28,538 bases of DNA from Escherichia phage Phi06_2974 B: sequence record KM389306.1; one strand, given 5' to 3'. The position numbers and the translations under genes were made by a program. A model generated the notes under the pieces. That model was not told the origin of the DNA, made no database searches, and saw nothing but the letters and a program-made list of their open reading frames with translations. Shown here piece after piece: positions 13,927 to 28,538 of this stretch (position 1 is its first letter; each line of letters opens with the position of its first letter).

Positions 13927-15449
13927 CAGTAATCCTCCAGCATACGGGCCGCCTGACGACGACGGCGTGAGCTTGCCTTCACCGGCCCTTTGTTAATTTC
14001 ACGACTGGCGAAGTACGCCAGCGCCAGTGCGATGGCTGAATCCCCGTGACGCTTGCCACTGTCAGACTTCGCTTTTGAGCGCTGTTCCGGCACGCGGGGA
14101 ACGCCGTTTACCACCTGAACGGCCCGCAGGTCATCCAGCGTATCTTCATCCTTCGGTAAATCCACCAGGTTGCCATCTTCCAGCGCAGCCTTGACCGGCG
14201 GCATATGCTCGCGATACCAGTTTTCAGTTGGCATCACCTGCTTAACCCGGCTGGAGCCGTAGCGCTGCATGGCGTATTCGGCGAGGTAAGAGCCGTTACC
14301 ACGGGCATCAAACGCTGCACCCAGCAGACCGGGCAGGCCATCCATCAGGTACCAGGCGATTTGCTCCTGCTGTTTGAACGGCACGTTGCGCAGCTCCAGC
14401 ACGAACGGCACGCGGCGAACCAGGTTCTTCTCCTGCAGCAGGGGATAGTCCACCGACAGGTCACCGCTGCGGCCAAAGTCGCGACCCAGGAAAGAACGTG
14501 CGTCAGCGGGGAGCGCCTCCAGCAACGGTTTCAGATGTGTATCAAGCCACTCCTGCGTCTCGCTCCAGCGGACATCATCGGGCTTCAGCTCGTAACCCTC
14601 CGGGCAGGTCAGACGCAACACCGGCGTGCCAGCCGACATACGGGACTCAATCAGGGCGCGGGACAGCCAGGCTCCGCCACCGTTGGCCGGAACACAGTCA
14701 AGCTCCTCCGATGCACCGGCACCGTAGAATTTGTACACCGATGCCATCCACGCCTGCTCGGATGCTTCCGACCATTCTTTCCCGGTACGCAGGCAGACGC
14801 GGTGGAACAGCCCTTGGGACACAGCCTCCTGAAAAGTAATGCGATGTACGCTGCCCCCCTGACGCCCGGCCCGGATATCACCGATAAGCGTATTGAACGG
14901 GTTATCGTCACCGTCATGGGTGGAGATAACGCGCACTTTACCGCCCCAGATAAGCATCGCCAGCGCCGCCTTCAGCAGTTCGTCCAGTTGCTCATGGAAC
15001 GCCGCTTCGTCGATAACGATGATGCCCTGACGGCCACGCAGGTTAGACGGACGGCTGGAGAGCGCGACAACGCGGAAGCCGGAGTCAGGGAATTTGATGG
15101 TGTAGGTCTTGATATGCTTGTCGTCTTCGTCCTCTTCCCAGAAACCCTCTTCGATTTCACTGGCGGCATAGTTGAATGCCCGCGCCCACATCGCACACGC
15201 CTGGATATATTCGACGGTCATGTCCTGGTTATAGGCGATGTAATACACGTTCATCCCACCCGCAGGGGCTGAAGAGGCTGCGGTCAGCACGTCATCGGAC
15301 GCCTCAGCCCAGGTGATACCGGTTCGGCGGCTCTTCTCAATCACCTTGAGCGGAGACGTGTCAGCCACCCAGCGCTGCTGGTAGGGCATCAGAACGGCGG
15401 GGATATCCAGCGCCGAGGTGTCAGGCAAAACAGGAGCAAGCTGGCTCAT
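13926..15449 (-). CDS. terminase large subunit (Mu gp28-like)
   Basis: ORF track 507 aa; ATG at 15449; acidic segment EEDEDD, nuclease-like C-terminal half; position before portal. Confidence 0.8.
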   Translation of the reverse strand: MSQLAPVLPDTSALDIPAVLMPYQQRWVADTSPLKVIEKSRRTGITWAEASDDVLTAASSAPAGGMNVYYIAYNQDMTVEYIQACAMWARAFNYAASEIEEGFWEEDEDDKHIKTYTIKFPDSGFRVVALSSRPSNLRGRQGIIVIDEAAFHEQLDELLKAALAMLIWGGKVRVISTHDGDDNPFNTLIGDIRAGRQGGSVHRITFQEAVSQGLFHRVCLRTGKEWSEASEQAWMASVYKFYGAGASEELDCVPANGGGAWLSRALIESRMSAGTPVLRLTCPEGYELKPDDVRWSETQEWLDTHLKPLLEALPADARSFLGRDFGRSGDLSVDYPLLQEKNLVRRVPFVLELRNVPFKQQEQIAWYLMDGLPGLLGAAFDARGNGSYLAEYAMQRYGSSRVKQVMPTENWYREHMPPVKAALEDGNLVDLPKDEDTLDDLRAVQVVNGVPRVPEQRSKAKSDSGKRHGDSAIALALAYFASREINKGPVKASSRRRRQAARMLEDY

Positions 15450-15994
15450 GAGGCAATCCCCAGAATTTCACGACGCAGCGCCTGTACCGCATCGGTTGAC
15501 AGTCCACCCTTACGGGCAATTTTCTCGGCGTTGCTGGCCGCCTGCTGCGCTCTGGCCCGGACTTCAGACTGGAACTTCTTGAGGTTGACGGAAGCGCGGG
15601 ACAGCGTGGCCACGTTCTTTGCCACCTTCGACAACAGCGCCACGCGCTCTTTGGGGTCGACTTCGCCTTCTTCCGCTTCCTGCAGCTGGACGATGCTCTC
15701 GAACAGCTCGGTCTGAATCAGGGCGATCACCGCCTCCGAACGTGCATCCTGATCGTCAGCCGCACCTTCGGTCAGCATCCGGGCCGCTTCAGTGGCTGCA
15801 CGGATAGCGCCATAGCGGCGCTCAATCTTCTGGCCATAGCGATGGATAGCCGATTTGCTGATGACATAACCCTGCTCACGCAGCAGGGACTCCAGCTCGT
15901 TATACCCGCTGAAGCCGGATTCAGTCAGCGCCCGCTCAAGCCAGCGACGCACGTCTTCCGGCAGCTTTTCTATCGTGCTGCGTCTGGCCATCAT
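15446..15994 (-). CDS. Mu gp27-like protein (putative small terminase / DNA-binding packaging protein)
   Basis: ORF track 182 aa; ATG at 15994; N-terminal HTH-like segment, immediately upstream of large terminase with ATGA overlap. Confidence 0.5.
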   Translation of the reverse strand: MMARRSTIEKLPEDVRRWLERALTESGFSGYNELESLLREQGYVISKSAIHRYGQKIERRYGAIRAATEAARMLTEGAADDQDARSEAVIALIQTELFESIVQLQEAEEGEVDPKERVALLSKVAKNVATLSRASVNLKKFQSEVRARAQQAASNAEKIARKGGLSTDAVQALRREILGIAS

Positions 15995-16302
15995 TCACTC
16001 CAGTACTTTTCCGGGCGGGCGATACCGGGGCCGCATTCCACGGTATATTCCACCAGGTCAACGCCGAGGCGGGTCAGGTCGGCAAACCAGTCGCCGGAGG
16101 GTTTTTTCTCCAGATCAACCATCTTGCGGTCGGACAGATAATCCAGCTCACGGCGCAGCTCCAGCGGAGTGGTGTCCGGGTAGATGGCGCGGGACACGTC
16201 CAGCAGCAGCGTCTCGCTGGCGGTGTACGGGCGGGTTTTGTTCAGAGCAACCAGCAGACTCCAGCGCAGGGATTCCCGGCGCACGCGGGCGATATCAACC
16301 AT
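15991..16302 (-). CDS. hypothetical protein (103 aa)
   Basis: ORF track 15991..16389 (GTG) trimmed to ATG 16302 with SD AGGAGG at 6-nt spacing. Confidence 0.4.
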   Translation of the reverse strand: MVDIARVRRESLRWSLLVALNKTRPYTASETLLLDVSRAIYPDTTPLELRRELDYLSDRKMVDLEKKPSGDWFADLTRLGVDLVEYTVECGPGIARPEKYWSE

Positions 16303-16627
16303 GGTGACCTCCTGTATGACGATACTGCTGTACCACTTCCAGTTTGTTGTAGAGTGCGTCCAGCTTGGCCTCGATGACCGTCTGCCCACGGATGTAATCC
16401 TCGCGGCGGACGTAGTTCAGCGGTAAATCCGCCTTAAACCGCATAAATTCTTTTTCCAGCTCGCCCCAGTTGGAAGCGGACTGTTGCAGCGACTGCTCAA
16501 GAGAGGCGAACCGCGCCGCCTGACGCTCCTCCGCTTTACTGAACAGCCACTTGGCCATACCGCCGACAAAGCTCATGAAGGTGATGAGAAAGCCCACCAC
16601 CGTCCAGAATTCAACCTGCAACGTCAT
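16295..16627 (-). CDS. membrane protein with N-terminal TMD and coiled-coil tail (lysis-associated; possibly antiholin/releasin-like)
   Basis: ORF track 16295..16687 trimmed to ATG 16627 (ATGA overlap with i-spanin stop, SD AAGGA); hydrophobic segment FWTVVGFLITFMSFVGG. Confidence 0.4.
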   Translation of the reverse strand: MTLQVEFWTVVGFLITFMSFVGGMAKWLFSKAEERQAARFASLEQSLQQSASNWGELEKEFMRFKADLPLNYVRREDYIRGQTVIEAKLDALYNKLEVVQQYRHTGGHHG

Positions 16628-17277
16628 TTCTGTAATCCTTCCCGTTCGTCCAGCAGCCCGTTTATCTGGCTGCGCCAGATGCGGCACTGCTTCGCGTTGT
16701 CGATGATGTTGGCGAGGACATCACGCTGGGAGACGCCTGAGTTGCGTAGCCAGGCGTCAGCGGCTTCAGGTTGCCCGGACGCTGCGCCAGTGCCGGTGCC
16801 AGCGGCGGCAGTTGCGTCTGAATGACCGGTGTCGACGGATGCGTTGTCATATCCGAGCGCGGCGTTGTACTGGCGCACGAAACCGCGAGTAAACACGCAC
16901 TCAATGGGATGGCTCTTACCTTTTTCATCAATCCAGCGCTGTGTGACATCGTTAATTTGCCCCTGTAGTTGTTTGTTCTGGCTCTCCAGTTGAGCAATCT
17001 GCTCAAGGTAACTGGCTTCAGCCTGCTGCCCGGCGGCTACCTGTTCCTGATACCGTTTCGCCCAGGCCCGCAACGCAGCGTTCTCAAGCGTTGCCTGCTC
17101 CGTTTTGTACGTGTCGAATGCTGACTGCAACTCACTGACCGCCTTATCGCCGTCGCGCGTGGCGTTTTCATGCCCGCTTTTGTAGCCCAGGTAATAAAGC
17201 CCAATCAGAAAAGCATTTATGACCACCGCCAGCAGCAGACTGCGCCACGGCAGATTTTTTAGCAGGTTAGTCCACAC
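16624..17277 (-). CDS. i-spanin (Rz-like inner-membrane spanin subunit)
   Basis: ORF track 16624..17379; proposed GTG start at 17277 with SD GGGGAGG 8 nt upstream, just after endolysin stop; N-terminal TMD then long coiled-coil periplasmic domain. Confidence 0.55.
   Translation of the reverse strand: MWTNLLKNLPWRSLLLAVVINAFLIGLYYLGYKSGHENATRDGDKAVSELQSAFDTYKTEQATLENAALRAWAKRYQEQVAAGQQAEASYLEQIAQLESQNKQLQGQINDVTQRWIDEKGKSHPIECVFTRGFVRQYNAALGYDNASVDTGHSDATAAAGTGTGAASGQPEAADAWLRNSGVSQRDVLANIIDNAKQCRIWRSQINGLLDEREGLQK
16662..16928 (-). CDS. o-spanin (Rz1-like outer-membrane lipoprotein), fully embedded in i-spanin gene in +1 frame
   Basis: ORF track 16662..17006 trimmed to ATG 16928; MKKVRAIPLSACLLAVSC signal/lipobox-like N-terminus followed by proline-rich region; embedded architecture as in lambda Rz/Rz1. 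Confidence 0.45.
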   Translation of the reverse strand: MKKVRAIPLSACLLAVSCASTTPRSDMTTHPSTPVIQTQLPPLAPALAQRPGNLKPLTPGYATQASPSVMSSPTSSTTRSSAASGAAR

Positions 17278-18004
17278 AGCTGCCGCCTCCCCAGGTGAGA
17301 TAACGCGGGGCCAGTTCGTGCAGGATGCGCTGCGGATAATGACGGTTCTCCCGCCAGTTGGCAGTGCTGCGTCCGGCATTCACCGTGGCGACATGACCAA
17401 ACCAGCGGGTGCTGTCCAGCCCCTGCTGCGAGGCCAGCCGTTTGTCCCGCTGTACCCAGCCCAGACCACCGTTATAGCCTGACAGCGTCATGGCCATACG
17501 CTCGCAGTCATTGACGGCGCTGACGCGTTGCCACAGCCAGCGGTCATAGCTGACCAGCGCCCGGATGGCCCAAGACGGATTAAACGGTTCACGGCTGTTA
17601 AGCCCCGGCATCAGCTGACTTATCCAGTCAGCGGTGGTGGGCATAAACTGCGCCAGTCCCTGAGCGCCAACCGGCGAGACCGCATCAGGTCGCCAGCCGC
17701 TTTCCTGATGCAGCTGCGCGGCGAAGTCGGCCACCGGCGCAGACATTCCCCATTCAAGCCGGGCATTACGGATCACATCGTCGCGATACTGCAGCGCGGT
17801 CTGCGGTGGCTGGGCAGCGCGGGCCTGACTGAAGAAGCCGCCACACCAGAGCAGCCAGGCTACCGTTACTGAACCAAAGAGCTGCCACCAGAAACTGTGC
17901 TTACCCGTTCGGGCCTGCCCGTGGCGGGCCAGTTCGATGCCCAGCCCCAGCAGTACCAGCACGGCCCAGACAACCTGAGGCCAGTACATATAGAGGGTCA
18001 TCAT
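17267..18004 (-). CDS. endolysin, lytic transglycosylase (SLT) type with hydrophobic N-terminal signal-anchor (SAR-like) region
   Basis: ORF track 245 aa; motifs QESGW...GLAQFMP...SGYNGG consistent with SLT family; residues ~5-60 contain two hydrophobic stretches; ATG overlaps holin stop (TAATG). Confidence 0.65.
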   Translation of the reverse strand: MMTLYMYWPQVVWAVLVLLGLGIELARHGQARTGKHSFWWQLFGSVTVAWLLWCGGFFSQARAAQPPQTALQYRDDVIRNARLEWGMSAPVADFAAQLHQESGWRPDAVSPVGAQGLAQFMPTTADWISQLMPGLNSREPFNPSWAIRALVSYDRWLWQRVSAVNDCERMAMTLSGYNGGLGWVQRDKRLASQQGLDSTRWFGHVATVNAGRSTANWRENRHYPQRILHELAPRYLTWGGGSCVD

Positions 18005-18354
18005 TAAAGCCCCATCGCTACGGCCAGACAGACTGCAGCAACAATCAGCGCACGGCGGATTAGCGCAGCAGAAAAGACCAGGTGAAGGCCAGTCTGGACA
18101 GGGAAGCGACCATCAGCCATCAGCCTGTCATCATGCTTCAGGTACTGACCGGGACGGGCTTTGGGGAAAAGCGAACGGTCAAGCCAGTAGCCCAATACTG
18201 CCGCCAGCGTGATGAGTGATAGCTTGTAGACAACCACCGGCAGCTGCTGGGGCGATACCAGACCGATGGTGCCGAGCAGCAGCACAGCGGTCAGCAGCCA
18301 GCCGCTGAGACGTGGCTTTTTAACAGGGGGAATGAATTTTTTCAGGTTTTTCAT
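18004..18354 (-). CDS. putative holin (three predicted TMDs)
   Basis: ORF track 18004..18387 (GTG) trimmed to ATG 18354 with SD AAGGAG at 6 nt; 116 aa with three hydrophobic segments; first gene of lysis cassette. Confidence 0.5.
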   Translation of the reverse strand: MKNLKKFIPPVKKPRLSGWLLTAVLLLGTIGLVSPQQLPVVVYKLSLITLAAVLGYWLDRSLFPKARPGQYLKHDDRLMADGRFPVQTGLHLVFSAALIRRALIVAAVCLAVAMGL

Positions 18355-18601: not shown

Positions 18602-19372
18602 ATGAAAGAACAATCTTTACCCATCGTCCCATGGATTGGCGGTAAACGTCGTCTGGCGAAGCATATTTTACCATTGTTTCCGGCCCATACCTGCTATGTG
18701 GAGCCGTTCTGCGGGGCAGCTGCGCTCTATTTCCTAAAGACTCCCAGCAAGACCGAAGTCATTAACGATATCAACGGGGAACTGGTGAACCTCTATCGGG
18801 TGGTCAAGCATCATCTGGAAGAATTTATTCGCCAGTTCAAATGGGCGCTGGTCAGCCGTCAGATTTACAAATGGTTGCAGGATACGCCGGAAGAAACGCT
18901 CACCGACATTCAGCGGGCGGCCCGGTTCTACTACCTGCAGAAACAGGCATTTGGCGGCAAGGTCGCCGATCACACATTCGGTACCTCTACAACCAGTGCG
19001 CCGCGCTTCAATTTGCTGCGTATTGAGGAAGAACTGTCGATGGCACACCTGCGCCTGTCGAGAACGCTGATAGAGCATCTGGACTGGCACCAGTGCATAG
19101 AGCGATATGATCGCCCGCATACGCTGTTCTACTGTGACCCACCGTACTGGGGAACGGAAGGCTATGGTGTGGAGTTCGGGCTGGAAAACTATGATCACAT
19201 GGCAGATTTAGCGCGAAGGATCAAAGGGAAGATGATTATATCAGTGAACGATATCCCGGAAATGCGGCAGGTATTCAACGGTCTGAACATGCAGTCGGTT
19301 GATATCAGCTACAACCTTAAGGTAACAGGCAAACCCAGCCCGAAGAAAGAGCTGGTAATTTGTAATTTTTGA
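18602..19372 (+). CDS. DNA N6-adenine methyltransferase (Dam-like, orphan)
   Basis: ORF track 18578..19372 (TTG) trimmed to ATG 18602; motifs WIGGKRR, EPFCGAAAL (AdoMet binding) and DPPY (catalytic); no adjacent restriction endonuclease gene. Confidence 0.8.
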   Translation: MKEQSLPIVPWIGGKRRLAKHILPLFPAHTCYVEPFCGAAALYFLKTPSKTEVINDINGELVNLYRVVKHHLEEFIRQFKWALVSRQIYKWLQDTPEETLTDIQRAARFYYLQKQAFGGKVADHTFGTSTTSAPRFNLLRIEEELSMAHLRLSRTLIEHLDWHQCIERYDRPHTLFYCDPPYWGTEGYGVEFGLENYDHMADLARRIKGKMIISVNDIPEMRQVFNGLNMQSVDISYNLKVTGKPSPKKELVICNF

Positions 19373-19419: not shown

Positions 19420-19953
19420 TTAATCCTGCCTTGGACAAGTCCAATAATCATTATCTGGCTCTGGTGAATAAGCTTTCAAACAACCTGCTCGCGGGGTCTT
19501 ACCATCATCTGTCATAGGAACTTTTTCCTTATCAAGTTTCACGGTCAGGTCTCCACCAGGAACATCCGTTTTATCGAAAAAAACAGCCTGACATGCTGAT
19601 TTAGATATTTTCACTTCGTGGGCATTATTTGATATGAACAAATAACAATTATGACCAGAGGCTATGTAGTCACTTGGAATATTATTTTCGTCTTTAATAT
19701 GAAACTGCACCGTTGTCACCGGGCGTTCGCTATCCTCGGATACTTCGACTTTTTCAAAACTGTCCGCGTACTTATCCAGGCCGGGGAGTTGTTGGCGAAT
19801 AAACGGTAATTCGCGATTTACAACCGGATTATCTGTTTCAACGCTAAAAACCGCGTGCTCCTTAGCTGTGGTGGACGTATCAGCAGGATCGGTATTATCT
19901 CCACACCCAGATAAAACAAATATCAACGGTAAAAATAATTTGCGCATAGTCAT
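19420..19953 (-). CDS. lipoprotein of unknown function (moron downstream of repressor)
   Basis: ORF track 177 aa; N-terminus MTMRKLFLPLIFVLSGC = signal peptide + LSGC lipobox; visibly lower G+C than flanking phage genes. Confidence 0.6.
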   Translation of the reverse strand: MTMRKLFLPLIFVLSGCGDNTDPADTSTTAKEHAVFSVETDNPVVNRELPFIRQQLPGLDKYADSFEKVEVSEDSERPVTTVQFHIKDENNIPSDYIASGHNCYLFISNNAHEVKISKSACQAVFFDKTDVPGGDLTVKLDKEKVPMTDDGKTPRAGCLKAYSPEPDNDYWTCPRQD

Positions 19954-27937: not shown

Positions 27938-28323
27938 GCGACCTGAATCAGTTTCGTAGTAAAGGGCCGGAACTGTTGGTGGAACTGGCACAGCATACCT
28001 CTGAGACTGTCCGCGAGATTATTGATATCGAACCCGCAGTTGCCGACCAGATTGGTCAGGCCGTCGCGAACCGCATGATGCAGGTCTGGGGTGGGCAAAA
28101 CGTCTATTTTCCGATGGGCATGGTCTGGAAGGTCAGCCAGCGCGACCGGGAAATTTTCCTGGAGTTTGACGGGCGCAACCATCACGAACTGGCCCGCAAA
28201 TTTGGTGTTTCACTACAGTGGGTTTACAGCGTGGTGAAGCGGGTCAGAAAAGAAGAACTGGATCGGATGCAGGGCAAACTGTTTGATGGCGAACCTGATG
28301 CCGATACAGGGAAAAAGGAGTAA
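27934..28323 (+). CDS. mor: Mor/C-family transcriptional activator (middle/late gene activator)
   Basis: ORF track 27904..28323 trimmed to ATG 27934 (overlaps gemA-like stop); 129 aa with C-terminal HTH region YFPMG...ELARKFGVSLQWVYSVVKR typical of Mor/C family. Confidence 0.65.
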   Translation: MSDLNQFRSKGPELLVELAQHTSETVREIIDIEPAVADQIGQAVANRMMQVWGGQNVYFPMGMVWKVSQRDREIFLEFDGRNHHELARKFGVSLQWVYSVVKRVRKEELDRMQGKLFDGEPDADTGKKE

Positions 28324-28352
28324 TATCTGCAATCAGGCTGGTGCGAGTTCTG

Positions 28353-28404
<52 letters not shown>

Positions 28405-28538
28405 ATCCAGTCTCTTCCCATGTTGACCCAGTACTTCCCATAATTATCTCACTTATCCCCTGTCATTTATCTCAAGTCTAATCACATGCCCTGACGCCAG
28501 AGAAGAGAGTACAGCATCATGCCCCGGTAATCACGGGT

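Follow-up and report, generated by a model that had tools for sequence, protein, structure and literature searches.

The lysis modules closest to that of Escherichia phage Phi06_2974 B (sequence record KM389306.1; the window, in the following, is the whole stretch of 28,538 nucleotides that was analysed) have been described in Burkholderia phage BcepMu and in Pseudomonas phage B3. In the BcepMu record (GenBank AY539836), gp21–gp25 are named holin, SLT, Rz, 'Rz1, out of frame, embedded proline-rich protein' and 'putative inner membrane protein', and B3 ORF24–ORF29 comprise the same gene set as the window, with ORF24–ORF28 as the lysis cassette. The endolysin of the window differs from BcepMu gp22 at its N terminus, where a 63-residue two-helix leader takes the place of a 20-residue classical Sec signal (MRVLIAFVVALLGAAAPVAA↓Q). 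The leader of the B3 endolysin, ORF25, is alike (GIPQ…, a basic loop, …LLLLAGGFF and SSAKA↓DE), although only 28% identical, and the GenBank record of B3 (AF232233) places the endolysin start at an upstream codon; B3 differs further in having an extra small gene, ORF26, between the endolysin and Rz.

Endolysins that are placed in the periplasm by Sec, independently of the holin, through an N-terminal hydrophobic leader are known from the signal-arrest-release (SAR) systems of P1 (Lyz), phage 21 (R21) and Mu (gp22), which, as is the case here, have a holin or releasin encoded nearby. The SAR enzymes are GH24 lysozymes, whereas that of the window is an SLT, and a SAR domain is a single, very weakly hydrophobic helix without a peptidase site, whereas the window leader has two helices, a presumably cytoplasmic cationic loop and an AxA motif. 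Export followed by signal-peptidase processing, as predicted for the window enzyme, is known for Lys44 of Oenococcus phage fOg44 and for T4 RI; with secreted endolysins of the fOg44 type, lysis is timed by de-energisation of the membrane, not by release of the enzyme from the cytoplasm. The leaders of Lys44 and RI have the ordinary n-h-c layout, in contrast to the n1-h1-n2-h2-c layout of the window leader, in which h1-loop-h2 represents an independent family. Finally, the passage in PMC8541568 that cites the endolysin of Xanthomonas phage Xp10 credits it with two N-terminal transmembrane domains (TMDs) and proposed self-export, so that two N-terminal TMDs alone are not unprecedented; the Xp10 enzyme differs from that of the window in enzyme family and phage type, and the passage makes no case from a peptidase site or from stand-alone homologues.

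The lysis genes of the window all lie on the minus strand, from 18354 to 16295:

18354→18004, minus strand: putative holin, 116 aa
18004→17267, minus strand: endolysin precursor, 245 aa, with a two-TMD leader and an SLT domain
17277→16624, minus strand: i-spanin (Rz-like), 217 aa, GTG start
16928→16662, minus strand: embedded o-spanin (Rz1-like), predicted 88-aa precursor, best start ATG 16928
16627→16295, minus strand: fifth gene, bitopic membrane protein of the BcepMu gp25 family, 110 aa

The initial annotation had listed these five open reading frames (ORFs), leaving the strand unstated, and all are present at the coordinates it gave, with Pfam and PHROG matches (given below) far stronger than chance would produce. 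Its description of them as tightly coupled by overlapping stops and starts is borne out at the junctions: holin and endolysin genes overlap by 1 nt (TAATG), endolysin and i-spanin genes by 11 nt, and i-spanin and fifth genes by 4 nt (ATGA). Using tblastn and the annotation, we found the complete BcepMu arrangement (holin–SLT–Rz–embedded Rz1–gp25–gp26–TerS, collinear), with identities to BcepMu gp21–gp26 of 54, 60, 29, 38, 48 and 57%, respectively (pairwise BLASTP E 5e-12 to 6e-81). Gene order, overlaps and the embedded Rz1 are alike in the two phages, and gp26 and the genes for the small and large terminase subunits (TerS and TerL) come next in both. This collinear homology to an annotated gene set makes the cassette a member of a described kind. 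It is not new in itself, being the BcepMu/B3 lysis module, which is very common in E. coli.

The endolysin and its two-helix leader

Three features of the endolysin precursor are needed for what follows:

17816..18004, minus strand: endolysin leader, residues 1–63, consisting of helix 1, cationic loop, helix 2 and the c-region SQARA
17816..17824, minus strand: A61-R62-A63, predicted signal peptidase I (−3,−1) site, with the predicted cut at A63/A64 (between 17816 and 17815)
17702..17704, minus strand: codon of Glu101 in HQES, predicted to act as catalytic acid

Two hydrophobic stretches had been noticed earlier within the first 60 residues of the endolysin; they correspond to helix 1 (residues ~8–26) and helix 2 (~37–58), which are separated by a cationic loop (RHGQARTGKH, 27–36) and followed by SQARA. 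By the positive-inside rule, the leader would be inserted with its N terminus out, the loop in and its C terminus out, which would put the enzyme on the periplasmic side. The PHROG family phrog_5479 is matched over its full profile (1–53/53, E=1.9e-13) by residues 6–59, and the leader bears the WPQ, HG and GGFF signature of this large family, the stand-alone members of which are phage and prophage proteins of ~57 aa with two TMDs. When residues 1–66 were searched with phmmer against 1.84 billion representatives, 462 clusters were obtained at E≤1e-3; of the best 150, 108 are stand-alone proteins of 50–69 aa, and some are tandem duplicates. A4, P9, Q10, L52, G55, G56 and F57 are invariant in the alignment of this hairpin family, and its conserved loop, HGxPxTGKHSFW, is kept in the window endolysin. 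Moreover, two stand-alone proteins, gp63 of Burkholderia phage Mica and gp66 of Xanthomonas phage FoX5, match the leader reciprocally. They end in …GGFFG and …GGFFSQP, respectively, at the point where the endolysin goes on with its SQARA junction. These matches mark the leader as an independently derived domain, drawn from a family of two-TMD micro-proteins.

The leader is also a mosaic, in that several unrelated central segments occur between conserved MxWPQ and LLWCGGFF flanks, which points to recombination inside the leader with the flanks fixed. The commonest leader in E. coli (type C) might be taken for a frameshifted, degenerate hairpin; we rejected this, as its central ~130 nt are unrelated DNA between conserved flanks and represent a mosaic replacement, and type C still has a basic loop flanked by hydrophobic segments, two in all. 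When loci L036 and L015, which represent two common E. coli variants, are compared, the ~130 nt between the conserved MNWPQIT and LLWCGGFF codons are unrelated. We found no internal start that would give a leader consisting of helix 2 only, since the first 70 codons contain only ATG 1, 2 and 6 and GTG 15.

No Pfam or NCBIfam family matched the hairpin micro-proteins in the scans run. The family also includes tandem-duplicated proteins of ~103–121 aa with four TMDs (P0244, P0253, P0257, P0259, P0260, P0265, P0267 and P0275), and in a few cases (P0320, P0362) the hairpin lies at the C-terminal end of a longer protein. The stand-alone hairpins were considered as lysis-cassette genes and dismissed as such, for in Mica, FoX5 and a Rhizobium phage they stand among early or replication-region genes. 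FoX5 gp66 (L007 2501-2671), a stand-alone hairpin of 56 aa, is annotated as 'lytic murein transglycosylase', a misnaming likely caused by a match that covers only the leader of SLT endolysins of this type. In the searchable literature we found neither a description of an endolysin leader made of hairpin plus junction nor experimental work on this group of endolysins; a 2026 preprint on uropathogenic E. coli concerns a different phage, and a 2026 paper on a Salmonella prophage mentions BcepMu similarity only.

Downstream of the leader, residues 98–194 match the Pfam SLT domain (PF01464, E=1.8e-14; 53.7 bits vs a cut-off of 21.3), and the protein matches phrog_669 (endolysin) with E=3e-69. The three motifs named in the initial annotation are present as HQESGW, GLAQFMP and GYNGG, and its assignment of the enzyme to the SLT type agrees with the results from Pfam, PHROG and an alignment with the C-terminal catalytic domain of E. 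coli Slt70 (1sly/1qsa), in which HQES is paired with RQES and the ES motif is aligned. E101 and S102 are invariant in the family alignment. In its domain match, its Glu-Ser pair and its motifs of the GLxQ and AYNxG types, the protein thus conforms to a family-1 lytic transglycosylase, and its 60% identity to BcepMu gp22 extends from residue 63 on.

The junction between leader and enzyme is the most conserved part of the leader. Its pattern, …GGFFSQ-A-x-A↓A-(Q/E/G/S)-P-P, is found in essentially all of the 120 best homologues, with alanine (occasionally V or S) at −3, alanine (rarely S) at −1 and a variable residue (R, N, H, S, D, Q, A, C or Y) at −2, and in these homologues AxA is kept whatever lies upstream. 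Some relatives, including Brenneria/Pectobacterium variants, have a single classical Sec signal peptide at the junction, e.g., MANRIRHNGSGSGLLFLLLILLLVGTFDSDA↓AQP. Other variants comprise short deletion derivatives, one unrelated hairpin and one lipobox, and AxA is kept in all but the lipobox variant. In BcepMu gp22, the leader is a textbook signal peptide (…GAAAPVAA↓QVP), and BLASTP homology between the two enzymes starts at A19 in gp22 and at A63 in the window. We read this pattern of conservation as a signal peptidase I site at the end of a leader laid out n1-h1-n2-h2-c, and we lean towards Sec export followed by cleavage by LepB as the fate of the precursor.

This differs from the proposal in the initial annotation, which had suggested that the endolysin may be SAR-like and membrane-tethered, and had held that a cleavable signal peptide at its N terminus would count against this. 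Comparison with BcepMu gp22 and the other relatives points to just such a cleavable signal. The SAR-like label also does not fit the leader as it was put: in place of a single, weakly hydrophobic, Gly/Ala/Ser-rich TMD, we find a hairpin of two helices of intermediate hydrophobicity, with a cationic loop between them and a conserved AxA end.

Several points nevertheless weigh against cleavage. The position-independent Hessa ΔG sums of the two leader helices, 3.4 and 3.6 kcal/mol, are intermediate: the TMDs of the neighbouring holin, i-spanin and gp25-like proteins have values of 0.3–2.1, and the SAR domain of Mu gp22 has 7.5. Both helices are therefore marginally hydrophobic, which leaves room for a releasable anchor. 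Helix 2 and its flank form a long h-region of up to ~22 residues, and long h-regions tend toward uncleaved signal-anchor behaviour. A free, soluble transglycosylase in the periplasm also raises the question of how premature lysis would be avoided. The AlphaFold2 (AF2) model of the whole endolysin gives no help here; it is of low confidence (mean predicted local distance difference test score (pLDDT) 59, and <50 at residues 62–65), and its quality was, in our view, insufficient for a fold search or for settling whether the leader packs on the enzyme. Moreover, cleavage, topology, function and timing of the endolysin are predictions drawn from comparison. That the distinction between a SAR domain and a cleavable signal has been misjudged before is illustrated by T4 RI, which was re-assigned from the former to the latter (PMC8385771).

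The alternative, to which we give distinctly less credence, is a retained anchor: the endolysin would stay uncleaved and be held inactive by its leader until SAR-like release on depolarisation by the holin, and the gp25-like protein may help to move the loop. Beyond their marginal hydrophobicity, both helices are rich in Gly, Ser, Thr and Trp, and the h-region is long for a cleavable signal. A holin is kept in the cassette, and the combination of a cationic cytoplasmic loop with a protein in the gp25 slot recalls Mu, in which basic residues cytoplasmic to the SAR domain make release dependent on gp25 (PMC9239132). With a two-helix leader, however, SAR-like release needs a loop of +3 charge to be moved through the membrane. 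Strict conservation of AxA at (−3,−1) around a freely varying −2 position marks a peptidase site, which SAR domains lack; close relatives carry, in place of the hairpin and ending at this junction, strongly hydrophobic, Leu-rich classical signal peptides or a lipobox; and BcepMu keeps gp25 despite a plain signal-peptide endolysin.

If the precursor is cleaved, the endolysin might even be a two-in-one precursor, in which the cut between A63 and A64 would free both the transglycosylase and a 63-aa two-TMD micro-protein with a role of its own, although we regard this as unlikely. Such a micro-protein, with the signature WPQ…HGxPxTGKHSFW…GGFF, would act, e.g., in lysis timing, membrane energetics or exclusion. 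Less likely still is a variant of this reading in which the hairpin stays uncleaved and serves as a new kind of releasable anchor, a 'double SAR', with the gp25-slot protein aiding the passage of its cationic loop through the bilayer.

The spanin pair and the putative holin

An o-spanin, proline-rich and encoded in the +1 frame within the bounds of the i-spanin gene, had been claimed earlier, and this is upheld by the coordinates, the lipoprotein signal, a dual-coding signature and homology to Rz1. The o-spanin ORF (16928–16662) is contained in the i-spanin gene (17277–16624), spanning 0.53–0.94 of its length. In a survey of embedded spanins, the usual start is at 0.4–0.5 and the usual end at 0.9–1 of the i-spanin length (PMC6139136), so that the start found here is near the surveyed range and the end within it. 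From ATG 16928, the predicted signal is MKKVRAIPLSACLLAVS↓C18-ASTTP…, which would give a mature form of 71 aa with 11 prolines and alanine at +2. Presumably, the signal MKKVRAIPLSACLLAVS↓CA fits PROSITE PS51257. The alanine at −3 of the lipobox is off the [LVI] consensus quoted in PMC6139136, and non-consensus lipoboxes are documented among spanins in the same paper.

In loci where the i-spanin is 70–76% identical, the +1 ORF is open, with both Cys and the core LPPLAPALAQRPGNLKPLTPGYA nearly unchanged. Across 50 distinct sequences, nucleotide diversity at third positions of i-spanin codons is 0.098 within the overlap, compared with 0.255 ahead of it, a signature expected of two frames under selection. 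The o-spanin is 38% identical to the annotated Rz1 of BcepMu, gp24 (E=5e-12). Together, these results support the embedded ORF as a real o-spanin gene, its product being a predicted lipoprotein. Its annotation is absent from all E. coli, KP12 and PhiKM records that we examined.

The i-spanin matches the Rz-like spanin family phrog_1403 (E=5e-86), with position 1 of the profile at GTG 17277, and is 29% identical to the Rz of BcepMu, gp23 (E=4e-15). It has an N-terminal TMD (residues ~12–32; the segment scored, 14–32, has a ΔG sum of 0.35), a helical periplasmic domain and two periplasmic Cys. Its ribosome-binding site lies inside the 3' end of the endolysin gene:

17286..17292, minus strand: i-spanin Shine–Dalgarno (SD) sequence GGGGAGG, 8 nt before the GTG

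A GTG start at 17277 behind this strong SD sequence had been proposed in the initial annotation. The start coincides with that of the PHROG profile and with the call of the NCBI Prokaryotic Genome Annotation Pipeline (PGAP), and it is kept in 50 distinct related loci, GGAGG and GTG being retained in diverged related viral loci as well. The PGAP name of the i-spanin varies between genomes, being 'lipoprotein' in some of them and 'lysis system spanin subunit' in a single case. The pair resembles lambda Rz/Rz1, where the i-spanin gene also encloses, in its +1 frame and at ~0.5–0.94 of its length, the whole coding sequence of a proline-rich o-spanin lipoprotein. The window spanins differ from those of lambda in sequence family (phrog_1403) and in their 217-aa i-spanin, and the mature o-spanin contains no Cys besides the one predicted to be lipidated, the two periplasmic Cys being located in the i-spanin.

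The 116-aa protein encoded first is a putative holin, given its family membership, position and TMD content. It matches Pfam Holin_2-3 (PF13272) along the entire profile (1–106/106, E=1.1e-41; 141.8 bits vs a cut-off of 27) and phrog_1528 (holin) with E=2e-54, in agreement with its earlier identification, and it is 54% identical to BcepMu gp21. The N terminus is very basic, hydrophobic segments at 16–34, 40–58 and 92–110 provide two to three TMDs, and the SD sequence AAGGAGA lies 6 nt ahead of the ATG. Weighing against the assignment, we found no experimental proof for the Holin_2-3-type holin family in the literature. A dual-start antiholin was considered and rejected: the in-frame ATG 10 codons upstream has no SD sequence, and the PHROG profile starts at ATG 18354.

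The gene in the gp25 slot

The fifth gene, which is the second annotated gene after the endolysin (the third if the embedded o-spanin is counted), is directly followed on the same strand by two further genes of the coupled operon:

15991..16302, minus strand: gp26-like winged-helix protein, 103 aa, phrog_436 (the Mu gp26 family)
15446..15994, minus strand: small terminase TerS, Mu gp27-like (DUF3486), Pfam PF11985 E=3e-56, phrog_426

In Mu, the order is SAR endolysin, spanins, gp24, the releasin gp25, gp26, gp27 and gp28, and both the slot and the topology of gp25 have been described (PMC9239132). The fifth protein of the window matches phrog_462 (E=6e-35), is a homologue of BcepMu gp25 (48% identity) and has 872 homologues among the sequences that we retrieved. 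Its TMD, at residues 7–25, is preceded by acidic and followed by basic residues, so that by the positive-inside rule the protein would be oriented N-out/C-in. AF2 models it as a single helix from residue 2 to 105 (pLDDT 88), too featureless for a meaningful fold search. The TMD that the initial annotation had assigned to this 110-aa protein is thus recovered, and the part it had called a coiled coil is a long helix in the model. The alignment of the family shows an invariant motif, LPxxYVRREDYxRGQxVIEAKLD, in the long cytoplasmic helix.

The label 'lipoprotein' carried by phrog_462 is wrong, because the window protein has no Cys. This misnomer recurs in many RefSeq phage records: the members from BcepMu and BalMu-1 have no Cys, and those from B3 and FP_Mushu have no lipobox-type signal.

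The fifth protein resembles Mu gp25 and the DUF2730 family in slot, length, topology, helical domain and an invariant (L/I)P at residues 65–69. However, Mu gp25 belongs to phrog_736 and the fifth protein to phrog_462, and no sequence or profile homology was detectable between them. The DUF2730 model PF10805 did not match the fifth protein even at E≤10, nor did it match any of 42 members of its family at E≤0.01, nor BcepMu gp25 or B3 ORF28, whereas the positive controls, Mu gp25 (2.5e-13) and the protein of Pasteurella phage AFS-2018a (2.5e-27), were found. BLASTP of the fifth protein against Mu gp25 returned nothing, and hhalign against Mu gp25, the AFS-2018a protein and a profile of 17 DUF2730 sequences gave probabilities of 0.1–0.4% (<1%). 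With Pfam, BLASTP and hhalign all negative, we rejected membership of the fifth protein in DUF2730; the name 'DUF2730' that UniRef gives to two homologues of 58–59% identity was not reproduced.

In the profiles of the gp25 family and of DUF2730, the invariant proline of (L/I)P is at P69 and P65, respectively, at a similar distance from the TMD, and an acidic-aromatic/aliphatic pair comes next. This shared spacing hints at a very distant relatedness of the two families, for which hhalign gave no support.

Two Mu-like phages of Gram-positive hosts, BalMu-1 and FP_Mushu, also have a gene of the gp25 family directly before gp26-like and TerS genes (L079 2396-3519 and L080 2354-3537, respectively), and in BalMu-1 no lysis gene adjoins it. 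Across very different hosts, gp25-like, gp26-like and TerS thus appear as a conserved three-gene block, and the persistence of the gp25 family beside gp26 and TerS in Gram-positive phages argues against a role specific to endolysin release.

These results bear on what the fifth gene does, which the initial annotation had given as 'antiholin or releasin-type'. The reading that fares best, though we hold it only tentatively, is that the gene is not a lysis gene but the membrane-anchored part of a gp25-like/gp26/TerS/TerL block, with a role in, e.g., packaging or head assembly, and that the lysis genes were inserted upstream of it. The adjacency to gp26-like and TerS genes is invariant in E. coli, BcepMu, B3, BalMu-1 and FP_Mushu, whatever the envelope or the type of endolysin; LPxxYVRREDYxRGQ is invariant in Gram-negative and Gram-positive members; and the fifth gene is translationally coupled to gp26. 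On the other hand, a role in lysis has been demonstrated for the Mu protein of the same slot (PMC9239132), and adjacency, on which a packaging role would rest, does not by itself establish function.

That the fifth gene fills the role of the Mu releasin, being needed for release or activation of the exported endolysin, we consider rather doubtful. In position and predicted topology, the fifth protein is an analogue of the releasin: its gene lies 3' of the spanins and directly upstream of gp26/gp27, as does that of Mu gp25, and the proteins are alike in size, in a single N-out/C-in TMD and in a helical cytoplasmic domain. AFS-2018a, listed as a Bcepmuvirus in the source table of PMC9239132, has a bona fide DUF2730 protein in this slot, and the two UniRef names mentioned above, although not reproduced, point the same way. 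Against this stand the negative results with PF10805, BLASTP and hhalign, the co-occurrence of gp25 with a signal-peptide endolysin in BcepMu, and the occurrence of the gene before gp26-like/TerS in BalMu-1 and FP_Mushu, in the former without an adjacent lysis gene. The releasin half of the earlier proposal is therefore favoured by slot and topology and disfavoured by the lack of DUF2730 homology, whereas nothing supports the antiholin half: an antiholin, which a small membrane protein beside lysis genes might suggest, is highly improbable here, as the protein does not resemble the holin, does not arise from a second start in the holin gene (where we saw no dual-start motif with an SD sequence), has essentially no periplasmic domain and belongs to a family kept in phages with unrelated holins or no adjacent holin.

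Genomic setting and meaning for phage lysis

Translational coupling continues beyond the fifth gene, which overlaps the gp26-like gene by 8 nt, the latter overlapping TerS by 4 nt; what had been called a cassette is therefore the 5' part of a late operon rather than a closed unit. A scan of the lysis genes for sigma-70 promoters and terminators stayed at background, neither a promoter-like site nor a convincing terminator being seen. The sequence beyond the lysis genes belongs to a BcepMu-like transposable prophage with genes for a DDE transposase, ExeA, Mor and Mu-type head and tail proteins, and we regard the region as very probably the lysis section at the promoter-proximal end of this prophage's late operon. 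Over the 3.3 kb compared, E. coli CFS3292 is 100% identical to the window, and its PGAP annotation arrives independently at the same gene boundaries, including the GTG start, without calling the embedded gene. Among 5426 complete E. coli genomes, 638 (~12%) carry the same or related DNA.

Several neighbouring features were noted in passing. A gene for a Dam-type N6-adenine methyltransferase (18602-19372, plus strand) is divergent from the holin gene, and in the record of Klebsiella phage KP12 (94% identical) an extra gene of 567 nt lies between holin and dam (L002 4819-5385). Between dam and a repressor-like helix-turn-helix gene, a hypothetical protein (19420-19947, minus strand) has a clear lipoprotein signal (MRKLFLPLIFVLSGC) and is possibly a moron or exclusion lipoprotein. 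The right end of the prophage (~28323-28463) is adjoined by gadC (28464-28538), which PGAP marks as incomplete and lacking its N terminus; the Mu-like prophage appears to be inserted in this gene for the antiporter of glutamate-dependent acid resistance.

Taken in order, lysis might proceed as follows. Late transcription would yield one translationally coupled mRNA, as the overlaps and the lack of an observed internal promoter or terminator suggest, and the Holin_2-3 protein, to judge by its family, would build up in the inner membrane. The endolysin precursor would be inserted by Sec/YidC as an N-out/loop-in/C-out hairpin, with its SLT domain in the periplasm without the aid of the holin, and signal peptidase I would, on the reading we lean towards, then cut after A61-R62-A63, giving a soluble transglycosylase of 182 aa and a 63-aa membrane hairpin that is a full phrog_5479 member. 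By analogy with secreted and SAR endolysin systems, triggering of the holin would de-energise the membrane and so set the moment of wall destruction, after which the spanin complex would disrupt the outer membrane. The fifth protein would be part of the gp25-like/gp26/TerS/TerL block of Mu-like phages and may act like the Mu releasin.

The current picture of phage lysis is not overturned by these results, in which the leader and the gp25-slot comparison are the parts of interest to lysis specialists. For annotation practice, it is relevant that the annotations examined for this prophage group all miss the o-spanin and that 'lipoprotein' labels are placed on the wrong genes. TMD-bearing endolysins call for caution, being neither all SAR proteins nor all anchored, and in one large survey, if not more, transmembrane regions were a ground for discarding endolysin candidates (PMC12596118). 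If the predicted processing is correct, the leader would show how an exported phage endolysin is built by fusing a two-helix membrane micro-protein to a signal-peptidase-type junction, and it offers a first functional handle on a hairpin micro-protein family of 462 clusters. The gp25-slot comparison, in turn, brings into sharper focus a question that the authors of the releasin paper had left open (PMC9239132): as two unrelated-looking families fill the slot preceding gp26/TerS, also in Gram-positive phages and beside signal-peptide endolysins, the ancestral role of this slot was probably broader than the release of SAR endolysins.

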